From a virus, in the IMG/VR virus record IMGVR_UViG_3300045988_057690, positions 1 to 39,663 of that record: a stretch of DNA of 39,663 nt; one strand, written 5' to 3'. Of the stretch, positions 1 to 39,663 are shown piece after piece. Each line of letters opens with the position of its first letter. Position 1 is the stretch's first letter. The notes under the pieces were generated by a model, which worked only from the letters and a program-made list of their open reading frames with translations, ran no database searches and was not told the origin of the DNA. The translations under genes were made by a program, and so were the position numbers.

Positions 1-55
1 TCTAAGTATACCACGCATTGCGTGGTAAGTCAAGGGGGGTTGTAAAAAAATCTGA
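1..55. repeat. Terminal 55-nt identity with 39609-39663 (circular closure)
   Basis: Exact match read from the sequence: tctaagtataccacgcattgcgtggtaagtcaaggggggttgtaaaaaaatctga. Confidence 0.95.
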
Positions 56-3312: not shown

Positions 3313-4739
3313 GCAACGAGGTTATTGTAAAACTCAATGAGCTGGGCTATACCACCATTCCGGGGGAGTTTTACGGCAAGGTGGTCGATTGGAAAAGCTG
3401 GTATCAGGGAGACGTGAAGGGGTTCCACCGGTATAAGCGCTACAACGGCAACGACTGGGTGGACTGTGAGCGCGTGTCCCTGGGCATGGGCAAGAAAGTC
3501 TGCGAGGACTGGGCCAACCTCTTGATGAACGAGAAGGTGCAGATCACCCTGGAGGGCGAACAGGAACAGGCGTTTGTGGATCGCGTCCTCGAAGAGAACA
3601 ATTTTGCTGTGAAAGCCAATGAGATGCAGGAGATGAAGTCCGCCCTGGGTACTGTGGCCTACGTCCCCCGCGTGGTGGGGCAGGAAGTCAGCGAGGGCGG
3701 GGAAATCATCCCCGGAAACGCCTCCAGCATCATGATCGACTACGTTACCATCGAGCACATTTACCCCTTGGCGTGGCAAAATGGCTGCATCACGGAGTGC
3801 GCCTTTGCCTCCGTGGTGAAGCGTGGGGAGCACGAATACCTGTACCTACAAATCCACCGCAAGGAGGATAATGGGAACTACCTGATCGAGAATCGAATCT
3901 ACCGCTATGATAACGAGCATCTGGCGGATGAGGTGCTGGTGAACGTCGAGGGATTTGAGAAAATCCCCCCCGTGCTGCATACCGACAGCAATAAGCGGCA
4001 GTTTGTGATTGATCGCCCCAACATCGCCAACAACATCAACTATTTGCTCCCGGTGGGTGTGTCGGTGTTGGCGAATGCCATCGGGGCGCTCCAGGGCGTG
4101 GACAAGGCGTTTAACTGCTATGTCAATGAGTTTGATAACGGCGCTCTGCTGCTGGCCGTCAAAATGCCCGCCACCAAATACGACGATGGAAAGCCGACGC
4201 TGGATAGTCACGATGGGCGGTTTTACTTGCTGCCTGAGGATACGACGCAGGGCAGCGTCGTGGACGCGATTTCCCCCCAGCTGCGCACCAATGAGCTTAA
4301 TATCGGCCTCCAGGACCAGCTTAACCTGCTGTCCAGCAAGTGCGGGTTCGGGGAGACTTATTACCGATTCGACGGCTCCTCTGTGGCGACGGCGACACAG
4401 GTGATCTCGGAGAACTCCAGCATGTTCCGCACCATAAAAAAGCACGAGATCATCCTGGAGCAGGCCTTGAAGGAGCTTTGCCGGATTATCCTCCGCCTGG
4501 GCAACACGGCGATGGGGGCTGAACTTAACGAGGACGTGGAGATCAGTATTGACTTTGATGATAGCATTATCGAGGATAAGCAAACGGACTTCACCCGCGA
4601 CCTCCAACTGCTGAATGCCAACATCATGAACGACTGGGAATTCAGGGCAAAGTGGATGAACGAGGATGAAGCGACCGCAAAGGCTGCGCTGCCAAAGATG
4701 CAGGACATGGTGGACGAGGAACAGTCGGAGGTGGAGTGA
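3309..4739 (+). CDS. Portal protein (SPP1 gp6-like)
   Basis: 476 aa, follows TerL with an ATGA overlap, acidic C-terminus. Confidence 0.85.
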   Translation: MSNEVIVKLNELGYTTIPGEFYGKVVDWKSWYQGDVKGFHRYKRYNGNDWVDCERVSLGMGKKVCEDWANLLMNEKVQITLEGEQEQAFVDRVLEENNFAVKANEMQEMKSALGTVAYVPRVVGQEVSEGGEIIPGNASSIMIDYVTIEHIYPLAWQNGCITECAFASVVKRGEHEYLYLQIHRKEDNGNYLIENRIYRYDNEHLADEVLVNVEGFEKIPPVLHTDSNKRQFVIDRPNIANNINYLLPVGVSVLANAIGALQGVDKAFNCYVNEFDNGALLLAVKMPATKYDDGKPTLDSHDGRFYLLPEDTTQGSVVDAISPQLRTNELNIGLQDQLNLLSSKCGFGETYYRFDGSSVATATQVISENSSMFRTIKKHEIILEQALKELCRIILRLGNTAMGAELNEDVEISIDFDDSIIEDKQTDFTRDLQLLNANIMNDWEFRAKWMNEDEATAKAALPKMQDMVDEEQSEVE

Positions 4740-11631: not shown

Positions 11632-14286
11632 ATGGCCGAGGCTGATGGGTCCGTACTCATCCACGTTGACCTGGACGATAAAGAATCCGTTACCAGGCTG
11701 AAACAGCTGGAACGGCGCATCGAGACCCTTAACAACAAAATCTATTACAAAAAGCAGGACAGATTGCCCATTGAAAAGCAAGTCTCCGAGCTGGGCGTTG
11801 CTCTCGACCAGGCAAAGGCACGGCTGGAGGAGCTGCGCTCCGCGTCCGCTGGGGACGAAGCCATTAAGGAGCAAGAGGCAACTGTAAAGGCCCTGCAAAC
11901 CCAGTTTGACCAGTCGGACAACGCCCTGAAAAGAATGGACAAGTCAATCGAGGACGGAACCCGAGAACTGGGCCGAATGTCGGACGAAGCCGGACGGCTG
12001 GCCGGAATCGTCGCCGGAATTCAGGCGAACGCTGCGGGGCTTGCCGGGGAGACCGAACAGGCCGCCTCCGCATCGGGGGCGAACGCAGACGCCACCGCCC
12101 AGGCCGCAGCCGCCGCCGGGGGCACAGCGGACAACCTGGAACGGGCCGGAGCAGCGGCGGCGGAAGCCACCGGTAAAACAGAAGGCCTGTCCGACGCGAT
12201 GAAAGAGGCGGACAAGCGGGCGGACAAGTTCACGAAGCGCATCATGGGCCTTGCAAAGCGCGTCTTTGTGTTCTCCCTCATTACCAGCGGCCTCCGCTCC
12301 GTCCGGGACTGGTTCGGCAAAGTTTACCAGACCAACGACCAGGCCACCGCCGCCGTGGGCCGCCTGAAAGGCGCTCTCATGGCTATGGTGCAGCCGCTTG
12401 TCAACGTGTTTATCCCGGTGTTTACCCGGCTGGTAAACCTCCTCACGACCCTCGCAAGCTATGGGGCGACCATCACGGCGACCCTGTTCGGCACCACAGC
12501 AGAAAAATCCGCCCAGGCGGCAAAGGGCCTGAACGAGGAGACTAAGGCCCTGGACAAGACCGGGAAAGCAGCCAAAAAGGCAGAAAAGTCCCTGGCCTCT
12601 TTCGATGAAATCAACCAGATCGGCAGCAATTCCGCGGAGGACGCAGGCGGTGGCGCAGGGGCCAGTGCAGCAGATGCGCCGGATTTTGATAGCGTGGTCG
12701 GGCAAAAGCTAGACGCACTAACCGCCATCGTGAGCGGTGCCCTCCTTGCGCTGGGTGCTATCCTGGTGTTTTCCGGGGCAAACGTGCCCCTGGGCCTGGG
12801 CCTAATGGCAATCGGTGCCCTTGGCCTGGCAGCCACCATCATGGCAAACTGGGATACCATCCAGGACGCTCTACAGGGGCCTATCGGCATCGTGACCGCC
12901 ATCATAAGCGCCGCTCTTTTGGCTATCGGTGCCATCCTTCTTTTCTCAAACGGGAATGTCGCTTTGGGCCTTGGGCTTATGGCCGCTGGTGCGGCTGGCC
13001 TAGCAACCGCCGCCTCCGTAAACTGGGGCGTGGTGCAGGAACTTTTGCAAGGGCCTATTGGGGTCGTGACAGGGCTTCTGAGTGGCGCGCTCCTTGTTTT
13101 GGGCGCGGTTCTCGCGTTCTCCAACACAAATATCCCCCTCGGGATTGCGCTTATGGCTGTCGGTGCGGCTGGCCTTGCTTCCACTATGGCCGTAAATTGG
13201 GACACCATTTCCACGTTACTGCGCGGCCCGATTGGAGAGATTTTCGCGCAAATCAGCGGAGCGCTTTTGGTAACTGGTGCAATCCTTGCGTTTTCCAACG
13301 TCAATCTCTACTTAGGCATTGCCCTTATGGCCGCCGGTGCAGTTGGCCTGGCGACCTACACCGTCGCAAATTGGGACACTATCTCCACCTTATTAAAAGG
13401 CCCTATTGGAGCGATTACCGCCCTTGTCAGCACTGCGGTTTTGATGCTGGGCGCAATCCTTGCGTTTTCGACGGTCAATATCCCCCTGGGTATTGCCCTC
13501 ATGGCCGCCGGTGCAATCGGCCTTGCCGCCACCATGACCCTCAACTGGAATACCATCGTGGAGCAACTTGGCGGGACTATATCCGCCGTTACCATCATCA
13601 TAAGTGCCGCCCTCCTGGCCCTTGGAATCATCCTCTTTTTGACTGGGGCAGCGGCTCCTTTGGGCCTGGGCATGATCGTCGCCGGGTCTGCTGGTCTCGC
13701 AAGCGCAGCGGTCCTGAATTGGGACTTTTTCAAGGACAAAATTGCCGATGTTTGCAACGGGGTCAAAGACTGGTGGAACAACAACATGGCGCAATATCTC
13801 ACCTGGGAATATTGGGCTAACCTTGGCAAGAATATCCTCGACGGTTTTGTGAATGGAATAAAGTCGAAGATTGATTCCGTTTTGAACATCGTGTCCAACG
13901 TGACGTCGAAGGTCACGGGCGCTTTTGGCGGTGCGTCAAAGAGTATTCGGAATGCCGCTTCCGGCGGCGGTTCCATCGGCACCAGGGCCTCCGCCCGGGC
14001 CATGCCGTCCATCAACACGGCCAGAATCCCCCACCTTGCCACCGGCGCAGTCATCCCCCCGAACCGCCAGTTTTTAGCGGTGCTGGGTGACCAGACGCAG
14101 GGCAATAACATTGAGGCCCCTGAATCTGCCATCGAGGCGGCGGTGGCTCGTGGCATTGCAAACAGCGGCCTGGGCAGTCAGACGGCTATCCTCCAAATTG
14201 GGGAGCAAGAGTTTGGCCGCCTGATTTACTCCCTGAACAATCAGCAGGTCCAGCGTGTGGGCATCAAATTGGGAGGTGCGACGTGA
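11632..14286 (+). CDS. Tape measure protein
   Basis: 884 aa. Coiled-coil N-terminus, then six hydrophobic Gly/Ala-rich repeats. Lies in the tail module. Confidence 0.9.
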   Translation: MAEADGSVLIHVDLDDKESVTRLKQLERRIETLNNKIYYKKQDRLPIEKQVSELGVALDQAKARLEELRSASAGDEAIKEQEATVKALQTQFDQSDNALKRMDKSIEDGTRELGRMSDEAGRLAGIVAGIQANAAGLAGETEQAASASGANADATAQAAAAAGGTADNLERAGAAAAEATGKTEGLSDAMKEADKRADKFTKRIMGLAKRVFVFSLITSGLRSVRDWFGKVYQTNDQATAAVGRLKGALMAMVQPLVNVFIPVFTRLVNLLTTLASYGATITATLFGTTAEKSAQAAKGLNEETKALDKTGKAAKKAEKSLASFDEINQIGSNSAEDAGGGAGASAADAPDFDSVVGQKLDALTAIVSGALLALGAILVFSGANVPLGLGLMAIGALGLAATIMANWDTIQDALQGPIGIVTAIISAALLAIGAILLFSNGNVALGLGLMAAGAAGLATAASVNWGVVQELLQGPIGVVTGLLSGALLVLGAVLAFSNTNIPLGIALMAVGAAGLASTMAVNWDTISTLLRGPIGEIFAQISGALLVTGAILAFSNVNLYLGIALMAAGAVGLATYTVANWDTISTLLKGPIGAITALVSTAVLMLGAILAFSTVNIPLGIALMAAGAIGLAATMTLNWNTIVEQLGGTISAVTIIISAALLALGIILFLTGAAAPLGLGMIVAGSAGLASAAVLNWDFFKDKIADVCNGVKDWWNNNMAQYLTWEYWANLGKNILDGFVNGIKSKIDSVLNIVSNVTSKVTGAFGGASKSIRNAASGGGSIGTRASARAMPSINTARIPHLATGAVIPPNRQFLAVLGDQTQGNNIEAPESAIEAAVARGIANSGLGSQTAILQIGEQEFGRLIYSLNNQQVQRVGIKLGGAT
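12715..13745 (+). repeat. Six tandem 174-bp (58-aa) coding repeats inside the tape measure gene
   Basis: The Asn-Trp codon anchor (AAYTGG) recurs at 12847, 13021, 13195, 13369, 13543 and 13717, exactly 174 nt apart. Confidence 0.9.
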
Positions 14287-16739: not shown

Positions 16740-16970
16740 GCCCTCTCAGTCAGCTGCGCTGACAGCTAGCCCTATCCCTTTTGTCCCTTCGGGACATTTC
16801 CCCTTGACAAGGGGAATCGGCCTTTGACAAGGGAGCCAGCCCTCTCAGTCAGCTGCGCTGACAGCTCCCCCAAAGGGGGAGCCAAGGGACGGGGGGACGG
16901 CGGGCGGCTGATAGCCGCCCCTACAAGAGACCACGAAGGCGGGTGTAGGGGCGGATAGTATCCGCCCGGA
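16740..16970. repeat. Intergenic cluster of short palindromic hairpins that includes a perfect 28-bp direct repeat
   Basis: GCCCTCTCAGTCAGCTGCGCTGACAGCT at 16740-16767 and 16839-16866. Additional inverted repeats: GTCCC/GGGAC, CCCCTT/AAGGGG, CTCCCCC/GGGGGAG, GGGCGGCT/AGCCGCCC, GGGCGGATA/TATCCGCCC. Confidence 0.85.
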
Positions 16971-18576: not shown

Positions 18577-18860
18577 AAAACATGGAGAACATCGGGATCG
18601 CCAACGTGGGCATTGCCAGCGTGGCGGCCATCACCGTAATTTGCTACCTGGTGGGGTTGATCGTCAAGGCCAGCGGCCTGAATGATAAGTACATCCCCAT
18701 CTGCTGCGGCGTGGCCGGAGCGGCGCTGGGCGTGGCCGGGCTGTATCTGGGCCTGCCGGAGTTTCCCGCCCACGACCCGCTGACCGCTCTGGCTGTGGGC
18801 ATCGTGTCCGGGCTGGCGGCGACGGGGGCCAATCAGGTTTTCAAGCAGCTGGGGAAATAA
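18573..18860 (+). CDS. Holin
   Basis: 95 aa with several predicted membrane helices and a charged C-terminus. Lies upstream of the endolysin. Confidence 0.75.
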   Translation: MKNMENIGIANVGIASVAAITVICYLVGLIVKASGLNDKYIPICCGVAGAALGVAGLYLGLPEFPAHDPLTALAVGIVSGLAATGANQVFKQLGK

Positions 18861-18867
18861 GTTAGGA

Positions 18868-18916
18868 GTTAGGAGTGATGAGATAGGAGTTGAACTCATC
18901 ACTCATCACTCCTAAC
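18868..18916. other. 15-bp inverted repeat within a repetitive TAGGAGT / ACTCATC element
   Basis: GTTAGGAGTGATGAG (18868-18882) pairs with CTCATCACTCCTAAC (18902-18916). Confidence 0.6.
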
Positions 18917-18960
18917 TCATCCCTGAAAGAACACTATCGACTATAGAAAGGAAGTTTTTT

Positions 18961-19209
18961 ATGAACACCAATATCCTGTACGACATCTACACCATCAACC
19001 ACCAGACCCCCGGCGAGGACCTGACCGTCTCCATGGCTAAGTTCCAGGCCCAGCTCCCCGGCGTTCTGCCCCACGAGGAGGCCAAGGTCATGCGGGAGTT
19101 CATTGGCCGCCACGGCAAGGCCCTGGCCATGGCGTTCCGCAAGAGCAAGGCCACTTTCCAGGCGGTGGCCGAAGTCCTCTATGCCGAGGACAACGAGGCC
19201 GCCCAGTGA
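18961..19209 (+). CDS. Hypothetical protein
   Basis: 82 aa. Its stop overlaps the endolysin start. Confidence 0.55.
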   Translation: MNTNILYDIYTINHQTPGEDLTVSMAKFQAQLPGVLPHEEAKVMREFIGRHGKALAMAFRKSKATFQAVAEVLYAEDNEAAQ

Positions 19210-19979
19210 GGCTGCACAGAGCCCTGCTGACCCACAACGACTGTTACATCAAGGGCCGCACCATTAAGCCCAAGGGCGTGATGGTCCACAGCACCGGAGC
19301 CAATAACCCCTGGCTCCGGCGCTATGTGGCCCCGGATGACGGGCGGCTGGGGGCACCCAGCCCCCGACACTGGAACCAGGGCGGCGTGGGGGCCTGCGTC
19401 CACGCCATGATCGGCAAAACCGCGGACGGAAGCGTAGCCGTCTACCAGACCCTGCCATGGAATATGCGGGGGTGGCACTGCGGGCGCAGCGGCAACGACA
19501 CCCACATCGCCTTTGAGATCTGCGAGGACGGGCTGACCGACGAGGGCTATTTTCAGGCCACCTATCAGGCCGCCGTGGAGCTGACGGCGTACCTGTGCAA
19601 GCTGTACCATCTGGACCCCCAGGCCGACGGGGTGGTGCTGTGCCACAGCGAGGGCTATGCCCGGGGCATTGCGTCCAACCACGCCGACGTGATGCACTGG
19701 TGGCGCAAGTTTGGCGTGGACATGAACGACTTCCGGGCCGACGTGGCGGCGGAAATGCGAGGAGGTGATGACATAATGGATGCACATGTGCGGCAGATCG
19801 TCCGGGAGGAGCTAGTTGCCTATCATATCCGGCTGGCGGAGCTGCCGCCCAGCGACTGGGCCAGAGACCAGCTGTCCGCCGCCGTGGCCGCCGGGATCAC
19901 CGACGGCAAGCGGCCACAGTCCCACGCCACCCGGCAAGAGGTGGCGATCATGGTGCGCAAGGCGCTGGAGGGCAAGTAA
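19206..19979 (+). CDS. Endolysin, N-acetylmuramoyl-L-alanine amidase (Amidase_2/PGRP-like) with a C-terminal wall-binding-like segment
   Basis: 257 aa. VMVHSTGANNPW...HAMIGKTADGSVAVYQTLPW...GWHCG...THIAFEICED. Confidence 0.85.
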   Translation: MRLHRALLTHNDCYIKGRTIKPKGVMVHSTGANNPWLRRYVAPDDGRLGAPSPRHWNQGGVGACVHAMIGKTADGSVAVYQTLPWNMRGWHCGRSGNDTHIAFEICEDGLTDEGYFQATYQAAVELTAYLCKLYHLDPQADGVVLCHSEGYARGIASNHADVMHWWRKFGVDMNDFRADVAAEMRGGDDIMDAHVRQIVREELVAYHIRLAELPPSDWARDQLSAAVAAGITDGKRPQSHATRQEVAIMVRKALEGK

Positions 19980-26796: not shown

Positions 26797-26825
26797 TTTA
26801 CAGGCTATAATATGTAGGTTATAAT
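26797..26825 (+). promoter_or_regulatory. Candidate promoter for the 26847 gene within a divergent control region
   Basis: TTTACA (26797-26802), 17 nt, TATAAT (26820-26825). A second TATAAT lies at 26806-26811 after TTGCAA. Confidence 0.5.
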
Positions 26826-27541: not shown

Positions 27542-27570
27542 TTGACAGGCTATAAAAAATACGCTATAAT
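27542..27570 (+). promoter_or_regulatory. Consensus sigma-A promoter, rightward
   Basis: TTGACA (27542-27547), 17-nt spacer, TATAAT (27565-27570). An ATG at 27578 lies at about the +1 position. Confidence 0.7.
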
Positions 27571-28202: not shown

Positions 28203-28230
28203 CGAGAACTCATATAAAGGAGGAATGATT

Positions 28231-28470
28231 TTGACACTGGAGGACCTTCGCATCCGGGCAGGCCTCTCTCAGCTTGACGTTGGGAGACGGCTGAACGTAA
28301 CGCAGTCCGCTGTATCCCATTGGGAGCGTGGGGACTACAACATCGCCCGGAAGTATCACAAAAAGCTGGCCCGGCTGTATCAGGTCACGCCGGGCGACAT
28401 CGTGGCCGCCTATAAGGCCGCCATCGCCGCAAAATGCGGAGAAGGGAAAGGCTATGAGAAAGAAACCTGA
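28231..28470 (+). CDS. Cro/CI-type XRE HTH regulator, first early gene
   Basis: LEDLRIRAGLSQLDVGRRLNVTQSAVSHWERG. TTG 28231 sits 7 nt after AGGAGG (28218-28223). An ATG at 28225 is also possible. Confidence 0.8.
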   Translation: MTLEDLRIRAGLSQLDVGRRLNVTQSAVSHWERGDYNIARKYHKKLARLYQVTPGDIVAAYKAAIAAKCGEGKGYEKET

Positions 28471-37900: not shown

Positions 37901-38092
37901 ATGCTCAGAGTAGGCCAAAAGGTAATGAGGACCCCGGCTCTGCTGACGCAGGCCGGTGAGGGCAATAAAGAGGTCCACCGGCCAATGACCGGGAAAGTGG
38001 TGTATGTCCACCCGGAGGGACGGTATCACATGGTAGCGTTTGAAACGCGGGGTGGTATTGTCAGAGAGTGTTTTGATGGGGCGGATGACTAA
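37901..38092 (+). CDS. Hypothetical small protein
   Basis: 63 aa, AGAGGAGG RBS. Confidence 0.6.
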   Translation: MLRVGQKVMRTPALLTQAGEGNKEVHRPMTGKVVYVHPEGRYHMVAFETRGGIVRECFDGADD

Positions 38093-38394
38093 TGGAAATC
38101 AGAGAGATGTTGCCCGAAACCGAAATCCTCGCTCAGATGGCCGTGGAGGCCCTGGAACTCAAAAACGCCGCATCAAGGCTCAGAAGGTTGCTGGATGCTG
38201 GAAACCCAAAACAGGCCGATATCTCCGAGGCGTGGACACGGTTGCTGGAGGAGTATGGCGATGTGCAGAACTGCGGGGAACAGCTTTTGAGCGGGCTTGA
38301 TATGGACGTGTGCGCGGCGATGCGGGCGGAGAGGATGGATGAGTGGAAACGGCAGATCGAAAGCGAGATGGACGGCGGCGCGTCCGGGCCATAA
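38092..38394 (+). CDS. Hypothetical acidic protein
   Basis: 100 aa, TAATG coupling to the upstream gene. Confidence 0.6.
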   Translation: MEIREMLPETEILAQMAVEALELKNAASRLRRLLDAGNPKQADISEAWTRLLEEYGDVQNCGEQLLSGLDMDVCAAMRAERMDEWKRQIESEMDGGASGP

Positions 38395-38430
38395 AACGCA
38401 AAATCGAGAGAGTGCTGTAAGCATAGCAAT

Positions 38431-38459
38431 ACCCCCGGGCCGGTGTGCGGCTCGGGGGT
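38431..38459. terminator. GC-rich hairpin between convergent transcription units
   Basis: ACCCCCGGGCCG gtgtg CGGCTCGGGGGT (one G-U pair); no clear U-tract. Confidence 0.4.
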
Positions 38460-38524
38460 GTTGCTGTCTATCAGCAGGCCCAGGTCTCGATGGTGTGGGC
38501 GCGAATGTTTCGGGGCCCCCACAA

Positions 38525-38896
38525 TTACTCTTCCTTGTCGTCCTTTTCACCGAATACCCCTTGACGCCATTCATTGAATTCTTGATCCAAGTGTGCTAGA
38601 TAGTCCTCACGTGTAGCAAAGTCCCCGATAATGCAAGGGATATTGTTGATTCTGTACACCTCAAAAGCGTGAATGGCGGCGAAGCGAAGCGCGATTTTGC
38701 CACCACGTAAACTCTCATCACTGGGTTCGTCCCCCACAGGGGCAAGAGCCTTTGCAAGCCGGTCCATCTGAGCATCATGCCACGATTCCCATTCCTCATT
38801 CGACGAAAAGCGTAGCGGCTCTTGAGATTCTCCAAAGGCCTTCCCAGCAGCAGAGATTGCTGTGAATTCTTCCATTTCCATACTATCAAACATCAT
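38525..38896 (-). CDS. Acidic 123-aa protein of unknown function
   Basis: ATG 38896 after CCCAGGAGGA. Very acidic (MMFDSMEMEEFT...EEWESWHD...GEKDDKEE). Lies behind the palindrome-containing promoter. Confidence 0.65.
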   Translation of the reverse strand: MMFDSMEMEEFTAISAAGKAFGESQEPLRFSSNEEWESWHDAQMDRLAKALAPVGDEPSDESLRGGKIALRFAAIHAFEVYRINNIPCIIGDFATREDYLAHLDQEFNEWRQGVFGEKDDKEE

Positions 38897-38931
38897 TTTG
38901 TCCTCCTGGGCTTGCCCCTCTTGATGATCTA

Positions 38932-38960
38932 AGTATACCACGCAATGCGTGGTAAGTCAA
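38932..38960 (-). promoter_or_regulatory. Leftward promoter with a 19-bp palindromic operator in the spacer (copy A)
   Basis: Minus strand TTGACT (38960-38955), 17 nt, TATACT (38937-38932). Palindrome TACCACGCA-A-TGCGTGGTA at 38936-38954. Confidence 0.7.
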
Positions 38961-39036
38961 TGGGCTCTGCAAAAAAATCTGAAAAAATTCCCCGGACCAA
39001 CCGGCCCGGGAGTGTTGTTATATCAGTGTTTCCGCC

Positions 39037-39573
39037 TCATTTCAGTGCGTCGATAATTTTGGACGCATTGCTTTCTGCAAAAACGGTTTCGATCTTGCCA
39101 ACCAGGGCCTTGTCGATATGGCCCATATCGTGGGCGATCTTCATGGGGCGGTAGTCCGAAAACCACGCCTCGACGGTCTGGCCGCTCTGCTGGGCCAGCT
39201 CGGCCATTTTGGCGCGGCCAGCCTCGCTGGCCTTATCCAACTGGATCGCATCGGCCAGCCGGAAAAACCGGCTGAGATCGATCTTCAGGCGGAACAGATC
39301 GGCCATAAAACTGGTGCGGAGCTTATCAGCAAAGGCGATCTGCTTATCGGATACGCCGGTGATCTCGGGGAGGTGATAGCCCTCCATGTAGTTCTCCAGG
39401 GTGGCCTGCTCCTTTGCCCTCTTAGCGGCATAGTAGCAATCGGGGCAGATGGTGATGTTGTCTTTGGCCCACTCCGTGTAGCTGGATGCATCGGCGGAAT
39501 TGTTGCAGGTGTGGATGTGCTCAAATTCCTTGCCGCATTTAGTGCAGGTAAGCATGATCTTAACTCTTGCCAT
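39037..39573 (-). CDS. Zinc-ribbon protein of unknown function
   Basis: 178 aa. CTKCGK...CPDCYY N-terminus. AGGAGGA RBS shared with copy A. Confidence 0.7.
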   Translation of the reverse strand: MARVKIMLTCTKCGKEFEHIHTCNNSADASSYTEWAKDNITICPDCYYAAKRAKEQATLENYMEGYHLPEITGVSDKQIAFADKLRTSFMADLFRLKIDLSRFFRLADAIQLDKASEAGRAKMAELAQQSGQTVEAWFSDYRPMKIAHDMGHIDKALVGKIETVFAESNASKIIDALK

Positions 39574-39608
39574 TTTAGTATCCTCCTGGGCTGTGCCCCT
39601 CTTGATGG

Positions 39609-39663
39609 TCTAAGTATACCACGCATTGCGTGGTAAGTCAAGGGGGGTTGTAAAAAAATCTGA
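39609..39663. repeat. Terminal 55-nt identity with 1-55 (circular closure)
   Basis: Exact match to the window start. Confidence 0.95.
39613..39641 (-). promoter_or_regulatory. Leftward promoter with a 19-bp palindromic operator in the spacer (copy B; identical to nt 5-33 through circular closure)
   Basis: Minus strand TTGACT, 17 nt, TATACT. Palindrome TACCACGCA-T-TGCGTGGTA at 39617-39635. Confidence 0.7.

Follow-up and report, generated by a model that had tools for sequence, protein, structure and literature searches.

The window analysed here is the whole 39,663-nt stretch of virus record IMGVR_UViG_3300045988_057690 of IMG/VR (positions 1 to 39,663). Near its right-hand end two minus-strand genes, gene B and then gene A, are each preceded by a copy of a regulatory cassette, in which a promoter holds a perfect 19-bp palindrome between its -35 and -10 hexamers and is followed by a leader and a ribosome-binding site (Table 1). 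We call these cassettes P2 and P3, P1 being a further copy present in close relatives, and we refer to the collected loci and contigs by L numbers. The reading that we favour, and that we hold to be very likely, is that the cassette is a strong promoter with the operator of a small, dimeric, phage-encoded repressor of the XRE helix-turn-helix (HTH) type, that the unit encoding this repressor has been dropped from the window, and that the cargo genes behind the cassettes probably serve anti-defence.

Table 1. Features of the cassette region, in coordinates of the window.
Feature	Position	Strand	Remarks
Assembly overlap	1-55		exact duplicate of 39609-39663; marks where identical relatives hold 474 bp more
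Cassette P2	39581-39663	-	promoter of gene B; equals the 85-nt repeat R, present twice in L204 and L206
P2, A/T tract	39652-39663	-
P2, -35	39636-39641	-	TTGACT
P2, operator palindrome	39617-39635		TACCACGCATTGCGTGGTA; core CCACG-N5-CGTGG, half-site centres 10 bp apart
P2, -10	39613-39618	-	TATACT, TG before it
P2, leader	39589-39612	-	CAAGAG box, then small GC hairpin (GGGC..GCCC)
P2, ribosome-binding site	39581-39587	-	AGGAGGA
Gene B	39573-39037	-	ATG at 39573; 178 aa; N-terminal CxxC...CxxC zinc ribbon and helical domain
Intrinsic terminator of gene B	38990-39011	-
Cassette P3	38901-38982	-	promoter of gene A
P3, A/T tract	38971-38982	-
P3, -35	38955-38960	-	TTGACT
P3, operator palindrome	38936-38954		TACCACGCAATGCGTGGTA
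P3, -10	38932-38937	-	TATACT
P3, leader	38909-38931	-	CAAGAG, then GGGC..GCCC
P3, ribosome-binding site	38901-38907	-	AGGAGGA
Gene A	38896-38525	-	ATG at 38896; 123 aa, acidic, pI 4.4

Most of the anatomy that the original prediction had read from the letters was recovered. Aligned without gaps over 70 nt, the two cassettes share about 90% identity; admitting one indel, in the leader, gives about 88% over some 82 nt. A neutral promoter scan of positions 38000-39663 returned exactly two sites, both on the minus strand and one in each cassette, and the two are alike: TTGACT, 17 nt, TATACT, with a score of 10/12 and, before the -10, the TG extension. Both copies hold TACCACGCA-N-TGCGTGGTA as a perfect palindrome, which fills the 17-nt spacer and overlaps the -10; its chance expectation in the window is 0.02, even with 3 mismatches allowed, and no further copy of the half-site above chance was present in the window, as had been stated. 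Both AGGAGGA ribosome-binding sites stand upstream of the ATG of their gene. A terminator separates the two units, indicating that gene B and gene A are separate transcription units. The T-tract reported upstream of each -35 is found in both copies, but part of the tract of P3 is the tail of the gene B terminator. Three other identities were considered for the palindrome and rejected. A LexA box was ruled out by the consensus, and a hairpin or terminator by the 1-nt loop. A spacer-binding activator of the MerR type needs an over-long spacer of 19-20 bp, while here the spacer has the optimal 17 nt and is accompanied by near-consensus hexamers and the TG extension.

Along with the original prediction came the proposal to search related phage and host genomes for the palindrome. 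That search revealed a promoter module spread widely among phages, and no host regulon. In IMG/VR the exact 19-mer was present in 72 contigs, where about one chance match is expected for 18 fixed bases (our own rough estimate), and in 71 of these the palindrome comes directly after a TTGACA-like hexamer while its last two bases open a TAnnnT -10. With the looser pattern TTGAC-N3-CCACG-N5-CGTGGTA at least 119 IMG/VR contigs were retrieved, and the register of palindrome, -35 and -10 is kept in more than 150 independent phage promoters. The consensus of 110 non-redundant promoters runs from an A/T-rich upstream tract through cTCTTGACAT, aCCACGCAaTGCGTGGTA and TaATA into an A-rich leader. Natural variants of the operator are symmetric (for example TATCACGCAAAGCGTGATA, CGCCACGGACTCCGTGGTA and TACCACGAAATTCGTGGTA), and in them the CCACG-N5-CGTGG core remains, the centres of its half-sites lying 10 bp from each other. 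A BLASTN comparison of the region with 50,697 GenBank phages gave no match. The cassette of the window is thus a copy of a widespread, portable promoter-operator module of an Aca-like (anti-CRISPR-associated) phage repressor and not an isolated oddity. The duplication had been taken to imply selection for strict co-regulation of the two genes; this is borne out in part only: the cassette is a family-wide portable module and no local invention, and its copies are also recombination breakpoints.

Additional sites were noted at some of these loci. In L248 (2163), L218 (1069), L259 (6941), L243, L166 (950) and L070 (8479) the spacer operator is accompanied by another operator copy some 31 nt further upstream, and L283 has a full operator copy within the 5' leader (3779). 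In L002, L011, L031 and their relatives TTTGGTCA stands in three direct copies, 11 nt apart, just above the A/T tract and some 40-66 nt before the -35; these copies may be the site of another regulator.

When the open reading frames (ORFs) of all loci were clustered, a single family recurred at almost every locus, encoded downstream of the promoter and on its strand. Its members are XRE-type HTH proteins, 54-236 aa long, that carry the motif GLSQxxFAxxxxIPxRT[LI]EDWExGxRxxPxY. With an HTH-domain profile the family was detected downstream of the promoter at 65 of the 72 loci with the exact palindrome, that is, in 65 of 65 informative ones, the other seven being six loci with at most 1.1 kb of downstream sequence and L028, where the context is not that of a promoter. 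Across the operator promoters it is gene 1 to 5 behind 107 of 168, with 0 to 4 genes before it. The association was also found in the reverse direction. For this, 80 IMG/VR loci were chosen by the HTH peptide motif only; in 61 of the 76 with enough upstream DNA a promoter-embedded palindrome lies upstream on the same strand, and on the opposite strand in none. L123, L124, L157 and L172/173 have a second operator promoter just past the HTH gene.

Protein and operator vary together. An Arg five positions past the invariant Trp (W+5) accompanies C8/G12 in the operator in 70 of 70 distinct protein/operator pairs, and proteins with another residue there go with G, A or T at position 8 in 12 of 12 (82 distinct pairs in total). 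Proteins that lack the Arg occur in several sub-lineages, some of them as close kin of Arg-bearing ones. Such covariation would be expected from direct base read-out by a dimeric repressor; it speaks against a host factor as well as a DNA element of purely structural kind, and it suggests that the HTH protein binds the inverted repeat and represses. The window operator has C8/G12 and fits the HTH protein of its relatives (..EDWERGARS). The original prediction had proposed a spacer operator for a dimeric regulator that would occlude RNA polymerase; the conserved register, the symmetric variants and the covariation all lend support to this proposal at the level of sequence.

An alternative would have the palindrome as a structural or recombination element of the DNA (a cruciform or a recombinase site) that lies in promoters by chance. 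The cassette copies are indeed recombination breakpoints, and the same 19-mer occurs within a repeat resembling repetitive extragenic palindromic (REP) elements in Thiotrichaceae metagenome-assembled genomes (MAGs). The recombination that is seen is explained by 85 nt of plain homology, and a structural element would account neither for the unchanging position of the palindrome relative to -35 and -10 across 110 non-redundant promoters, nor for the 10-bp spacing of the half-sites, nor for the covariation of the operator with an amino acid of the linked HTH protein. We regard this alternative as exceedingly improbable. The Thiotrichaceae/Gammaproteobacteria MAG matches (L073-L121) were judged unrelated: there the 19-mer is the core of the REP-like repeat CGTTACCACGCAGTGCGTGGTAACG, with AACGCTGGTGCGTTA before it, in dozens of copies.

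The window itself has no member of the HTH family. A six-frame hidden Markov model search of it returned only a generic Cro-like XRE gene at 28225-28470, with 15 bits and a different recognition helix, and none of the five HTH proteins that had been listed as candidates for the cognate regulator belongs to the family. The gene is present in the closest relatives of the window. Gene A, as a 100% identical protein, is encoded on six longer contigs (L203-L208), and all six carry the HTH gene (about 100 bits) in the same island, which has the ParB_N/Mom/terminase late genes on one side and the end of the early operon on the other. The island of L204 and L206 consists of three units, with P1 ahead of a 115-aa HTH gene, P2 ahead of gene B and P3 ahead of gene A. 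L206, a 40,047-nt contig, is 100.000% identical to the window over 8,814 + 11,139 nt (0 mismatches over 19,953 nt). The sole difference is one extra unit in L206, comprising cassette P1, the 115-aa HTH repressor gene and a terminator, which has an identical 85-nt cassette copy on either side and gives a repeat period of 474 bp. Among L203-L208 the content of the island differs at cassette boundaries: L205 (9880-10000, compared with 9262 and 9943 in L204) has a hybrid P2/P3 cassette ahead of gene A and no gene B, which indicates that cassette copies recombine in nature.

The ends of the window fall on the same repeat. Positions 1-55 are 100% identical to positions 39609-39663, an overlap of the k=55 k-mer type from a circularised assembly, so that the unique length of the window is 39,608 nt and the true neighbour of position 39663 is position 56. 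The original prediction had read positions 1-55 as a continuation of the cassette through circular closure; with the overlap recognised, the window has two cassette copies, not three. Read as its reverse complement, the window begins at base 1 of the 85-nt repeat and ends 55 nt into it. Contig ends at a repeat boundary are expected from a path through a de Bruijn graph in which the repeat is a separate node, whereas such a placement would otherwise occur by chance about once in 40,000, and the circle is therefore probably mis-closed or derived from a mixed population. The HTH gene is absent because one 474-bp unit between 85-nt repeats was dropped, either through collapse by the assembler or through homologous recombination. 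The two would be marked by different junctions: the ParB flank and R joined to AAAAATTATGAAGATGACTGATAAG, together with GGCCCGGGGAATTTT-R-gene B, for collapse, and the ParB flank and R followed by CTAAAATGGCAAGAG for a real deletion.

Should the window be the true genome of a natural deletion variant in which the 85-nt repeats have recombined, genes A and B would be constitutive, also in the lysogen, in the manner of morons. This would concern only the state of the window and not the nature of the cassette. It would agree with L288, a 2.2-kb contig from 3 samples that is 100% identical to the HTH-less ParB-repeat-gene B junction of the window, and with the natural recombination of cassettes in L205. 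The exact position of the contig ends, at base 1 and base 55 of the repeat, is instead what a branch in the assembly graph gives; in the assemblies of L289 and L287, too, the break falls on base 1 or base 56 of that repeat, and contigs of about 40 kb from at least 5 samples carry the P1-HTH unit. A natural deletion variant is hence a possibility to be kept in mind, though the less probable state of the window in our judgement.

Whether the unit was lost by collapse or by real deletion, the cognate regulator is the phage's own. The original prediction had allowed for a host-encoded one, in which case both cargo genes would answer a host signal. The window has no cognate regulator, which would fit such a scheme, and promoter-like exact 19-mers do stand before genes of host type, namely era (L074, near 5513, in an Acutalibacteraceae MAG), a leuA-like gene (L113, near 3225, in a Clostridium MAG) and an acyl-CoA synthetase gene in three Chloroploca genomes (L100/L105/L107), the last being judged unrelated. 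A scan of one genome from each of 185,579 species gave about a dozen Firmicutes matches, almost all in prophage-like cargo contexts and with no sign of a host regulon; the promoter-type matches came from Oscillospiraceae, Acutalibacteraceae, Enterocloster, Merdimonas, Eubacteriaceae, Clostridium and Megasphaera. The phage HTH gene is in cis in every informative locus, covaries with the operator and is present, in the same island, in L203-L208, including L206 with its 100% identity to the window. Regulation by the host is accordingly a very improbable alternative to a repressor of the phage.

The genes behind the operator promoters vary widely. The first ORF past the promoter belongs to many unrelated families, and a walk downstream gave 62 cargo families, most of them small and acidic. 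Two have recognisable relatives: a 67-aa cargo of L128/L135 matches Pfam AcrIC5 at 35.2 bits (gathering cut-off 27), and a 265-aa cargo of L166 is ArdC-like, with a PHROG anti-restriction match at 1e-23. About 58 other families, and genes A and B with them, gave no match to anti-defence families. Searches of Pfam, PHROGs and NCBIfam returned nothing useful for genes A and B, and back-translated searches for both in IMG/VR returned nothing. Gene A has no family match, and a set of 5.8 billion proteins holds no more than three clusters of it at 90% identity. For gene B there are about 50 clusters of homologues, none of them named, and its homologues in L005, L016 and L078 lie behind the same operator promoter, upstream of the HTH gene. 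The AlphaFold2 model of gene B (predicted local distance difference test, pLDDT, 93) shows a zinc ribbon like that of papillomavirus E7-CR3 and a helical domain; no fold in the PDB matched beyond this ribbon, and the BFVD matches were only uncharacterised metagenomic phage proteins. Two other cargo families have the motif G[ST]xKQ[IV]x[WFY]A in common with gene B. Genes A and B belong to a hypervariable pool of cargo genes that are small and mostly acidic, and from this context we infer that both probably serve anti-defence.

The confident model of the HTH protein itself (pLDDT 92.7) has two parts, an XRE HTH at the C-terminus and, ahead of it, an N-terminal three-helix domain for which no structural match emerged. 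Among solved structures the HTH came closest to 2ppx, HigA2, C.Kpn2I and ImmR, all of them weak matches; a profile search of the PDB turned up 2ppx, HigA2 and 7xi5 alone, at E = 0.026, and in Foldseek Aca7 (9lx1) came as a weak match at rank 40, with E = 4. Pfam reported HTH_3 only, and members of the family are named in databases only as 'putative transcriptional regulator' or 'antitoxin'. The protein could then be the antitoxin of a HigBA/MqsRA-like module, with the upstream genes as toxins and the palindrome as the toxin-antitoxin operator. HigBA modules have the toxin gene first, the antitoxin gene second and the operator in the promoter, and in addition to the closeness of HigA2 there is weak similarity to MqsA and HipB, and one member is labelled 'antitoxin' in NR. 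A toxin partner is what the loci fail to provide: more than 60 unrelated families, mostly small and acidic, lie upstream, none of them matched a toxin family, and no conserved toxin gene adjoins the HTH gene. The number of genes before the HTH gene varies from 0 to 4, the HTH gene stands alone behind P1 in L204/L206, cargo genes also occur behind promoters of their own without it, and AcrIC5-like and ArdC-like proteins are among the cargoes. We therefore consider a toxin-antitoxin module improbable and retain the phage repressor of cargo promoters.

The leaders have conserved traits as well. Of 110 leaders, 53 have a Shine-Dalgarno-like [TC]AAG[AG][GA] box in their first 20 nt, compared with 6 of 110 for a control stretch, and the leaders tend to form a short GC-rich hairpin with a variable stem sequence (mean minimum free energy z-score -1.24). 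Both window leaders have the box followed by such a hairpin; Rfam gave nothing near the gathering score on 38300-39663. Box and hairpin may be an mRNA stabiliser or a site of RNA-level control, and sites of the latter kind have been proposed for other Aca operons (PMC13551039).

These results can be combined into a scheme. The cassette would be a sigma-A-type promoter, with its A/T-rich upstream tract, near-consensus -35, 17-nt spacer and TG-extended -10, and the complete island between the early and late operons would comprise P1 with the 115-aa repressor, P2 with gene B and P3 with gene A. On entry of the phage the three promoters would fire without any phage factor. The repressor would then build up, bind the palindrome across -35 and -10, and shut off its own promoter together with the neighbouring cargo promoters. 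This logic would be that of the anti-defence operons composed of anti-CRISPR (acr) and aca genes, whose layout is matched by the strong promoter with its internal operator, the variable small genes placed first, the HTH autorepressor placed last and the extra operator promoters on neighbours.

Several points detract from this scheme, although the anatomy and conservation of the cassette, the operon linkage, the covariation and the missing unit are direct observations. We infer binding, repression, timing and cargo function from a case that is comparative throughout. The significance of the covariation (Fisher test, 1e-14) comes from a statistic that ignores phylogeny. The HTH protein is as close to antitoxins of the HigA2/MqsA type as to any Aca, and neither gene A nor gene B matches a known anti-defence family. 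Finally, the window has no repressor, and the junction in L288 would agree with a real deletion; in such a genome both promoters would be unregulated, unless another prophage supplied the protein.

Some further readings go beyond the favoured one, and taken jointly we offer them as tentative. The HTH family may be a so far unnamed Aca-like regulator of phages of gut Clostridia and Negativicutes, and the operator, with its simple Arg-to-C8/G12 recognition rule, could be used to search out more than 60 new families of anti-defence genes. The 85-nt cassettes could double as linkers for homologous recombination that shuffle cargo, much as in an integron array. The conserved leader, with its CAAGAG box and GC hairpin, could add control at the RNA level, as in Aca1/Aca2, and in the HTH protein the conserved N-terminal domain could have an inhibitory role of its own, as is the case for AcrIIA32. 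Cassette recombination could also delete the repressor unit spontaneously and so give rise to derepressed phage variants.

Very few anti-defence genes are known in phages of gut Firmicutes, which gives value to a handle for candidates. Here the handle consists of a -35 TTGACA, nnCCACG-N5-CGTGGTA and a linked HTH protein with IPxRT[LI]EDWExGxR; it marks about 60 unrelated, hypervariable families of small proteins, genes A and B included. The locus also calls for caution in the reading of circularised metagenomic phage contigs, since an 85-nt regulatory repeat lets the assembler or the phage drop the regulator gene, and a self-contained circuit then appears as an 'orphan operator'.

Other repeats were noted elsewhere in the window. 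Six tandem 174-nt (58-aa) units occupy 12730-13723, within an 884-aa ORF (11632-14286) that, by its position, probably encodes a tape-measure-like protein. A 33-nt direct repeat (94% identical), each copy with the palindrome CAGTCAGCTGCGCTGACAG, follows a 681-aa ORF at 16740-16772 and 16839-16871. The intergenic stretch 18857-18920, which precedes a 257-aa ORF (19206-19979), holds an inverted repeat that is nearly perfect, its 26-nt arms separated by a 1-nt centre. Near the serine integrase gene are two promoter-like repeats, TT(T/G)ACAGGCTATAA...TATAAT, at 26797-26825 and 27542-27570, presumably a separate operator set belonging to the lysis-lysogeny switch.

Among known systems, acr-aca operons such as those of Aca1 and Aca2 (PMC6765145, PMC9410906) offer the closest likeness in layout: a strong early promoter with an inverted-repeat operator over -35 and -10, small variable anti-defence genes first and the HTH autorepressor last, with two inverted repeats in some promoters. 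Aca operators lie within promoters, and Aca proteins control neighbouring operons (PMC9410906, PMC12282945, PMC13551039); regulation of several adjacent anti-defence operons by one Aca (PMC13551039) is the P1/P2/P3 layout of L204 and L206. Aca6, Aca9 and Aca10 are, like the present protein, HigA2-like HTH_3 proteins. The HTH family described here differs in that it gave no convincing match to a named Aca in the PDB profile, Foldseek and Pfam searches and in having gut Clostridia and Negativicutes as hosts; one cargo has a family-level Acr match, and the window itself is without an aca-like gene. PMC13551039 covers Aca1-12 and Aca14, and neither the CCACG-N5-CGTGG motif nor Clostridia are among its contents.

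A second likeness, drawn by description only, is to Aca11, Aca12 and Aca13 (the C-terminal domain of AcrIIA32) of Streptococcus mobile elements (PMC12282945, PMC13551039, PMC8934645). The inverted repeats of Aca13 lie between -35 and -10, as the operator does here; one regulator of this group serves its own and a neighbouring promoter; an extra N-terminal domain precedes a DNA-binding C-terminus; and aca12 operons have a predicted RNA hairpin in the 5' leader. Aca13, in contrast, is described as lacking a canonical HTH, and Aca12 is reported only from Streptococcaceae phages. Streptococcus phage Javan242 (L285) encodes a 104-aa homologue, 31% identical to the HTH protein, which ends an operon after the lysin gene in the same layout. 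Its related operator, ACGCAATGCGT, occurs twice, in identical promoters TTGACA-ATATACGCAATGCGTGT-TATAAT at 1800-1830 and 3525-3555 that flank the operon. This homologue may belong to the Streptococcus Aca12/Aca13 group; it did not match AcrIIA32 (8YE6).

HigA2/MqsA-type antitoxins and the C proteins of restriction-modification systems share with the family the XRE HTH fold, the xRTLxxWExG motif and autoregulation through promoter palindromes; the differences are that no toxin or restriction-modification partner accompanies it and that its N-terminal three-helix domain has no structural match. The discovery of archaeal-virus genes guided by regulatory sequences (PMC11065993) concerned another motif and regulator, and the setting here is bacterial; in both cases a conserved strong promoter or motif marks many unrelated early anti-defence candidates, including genes without an adjacent regulator. 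The type of module is already known from acr-aca operons, and the CCACG-N5-CGTGG operator with its HTH family would be a further case of it in phages of gut bacteria.

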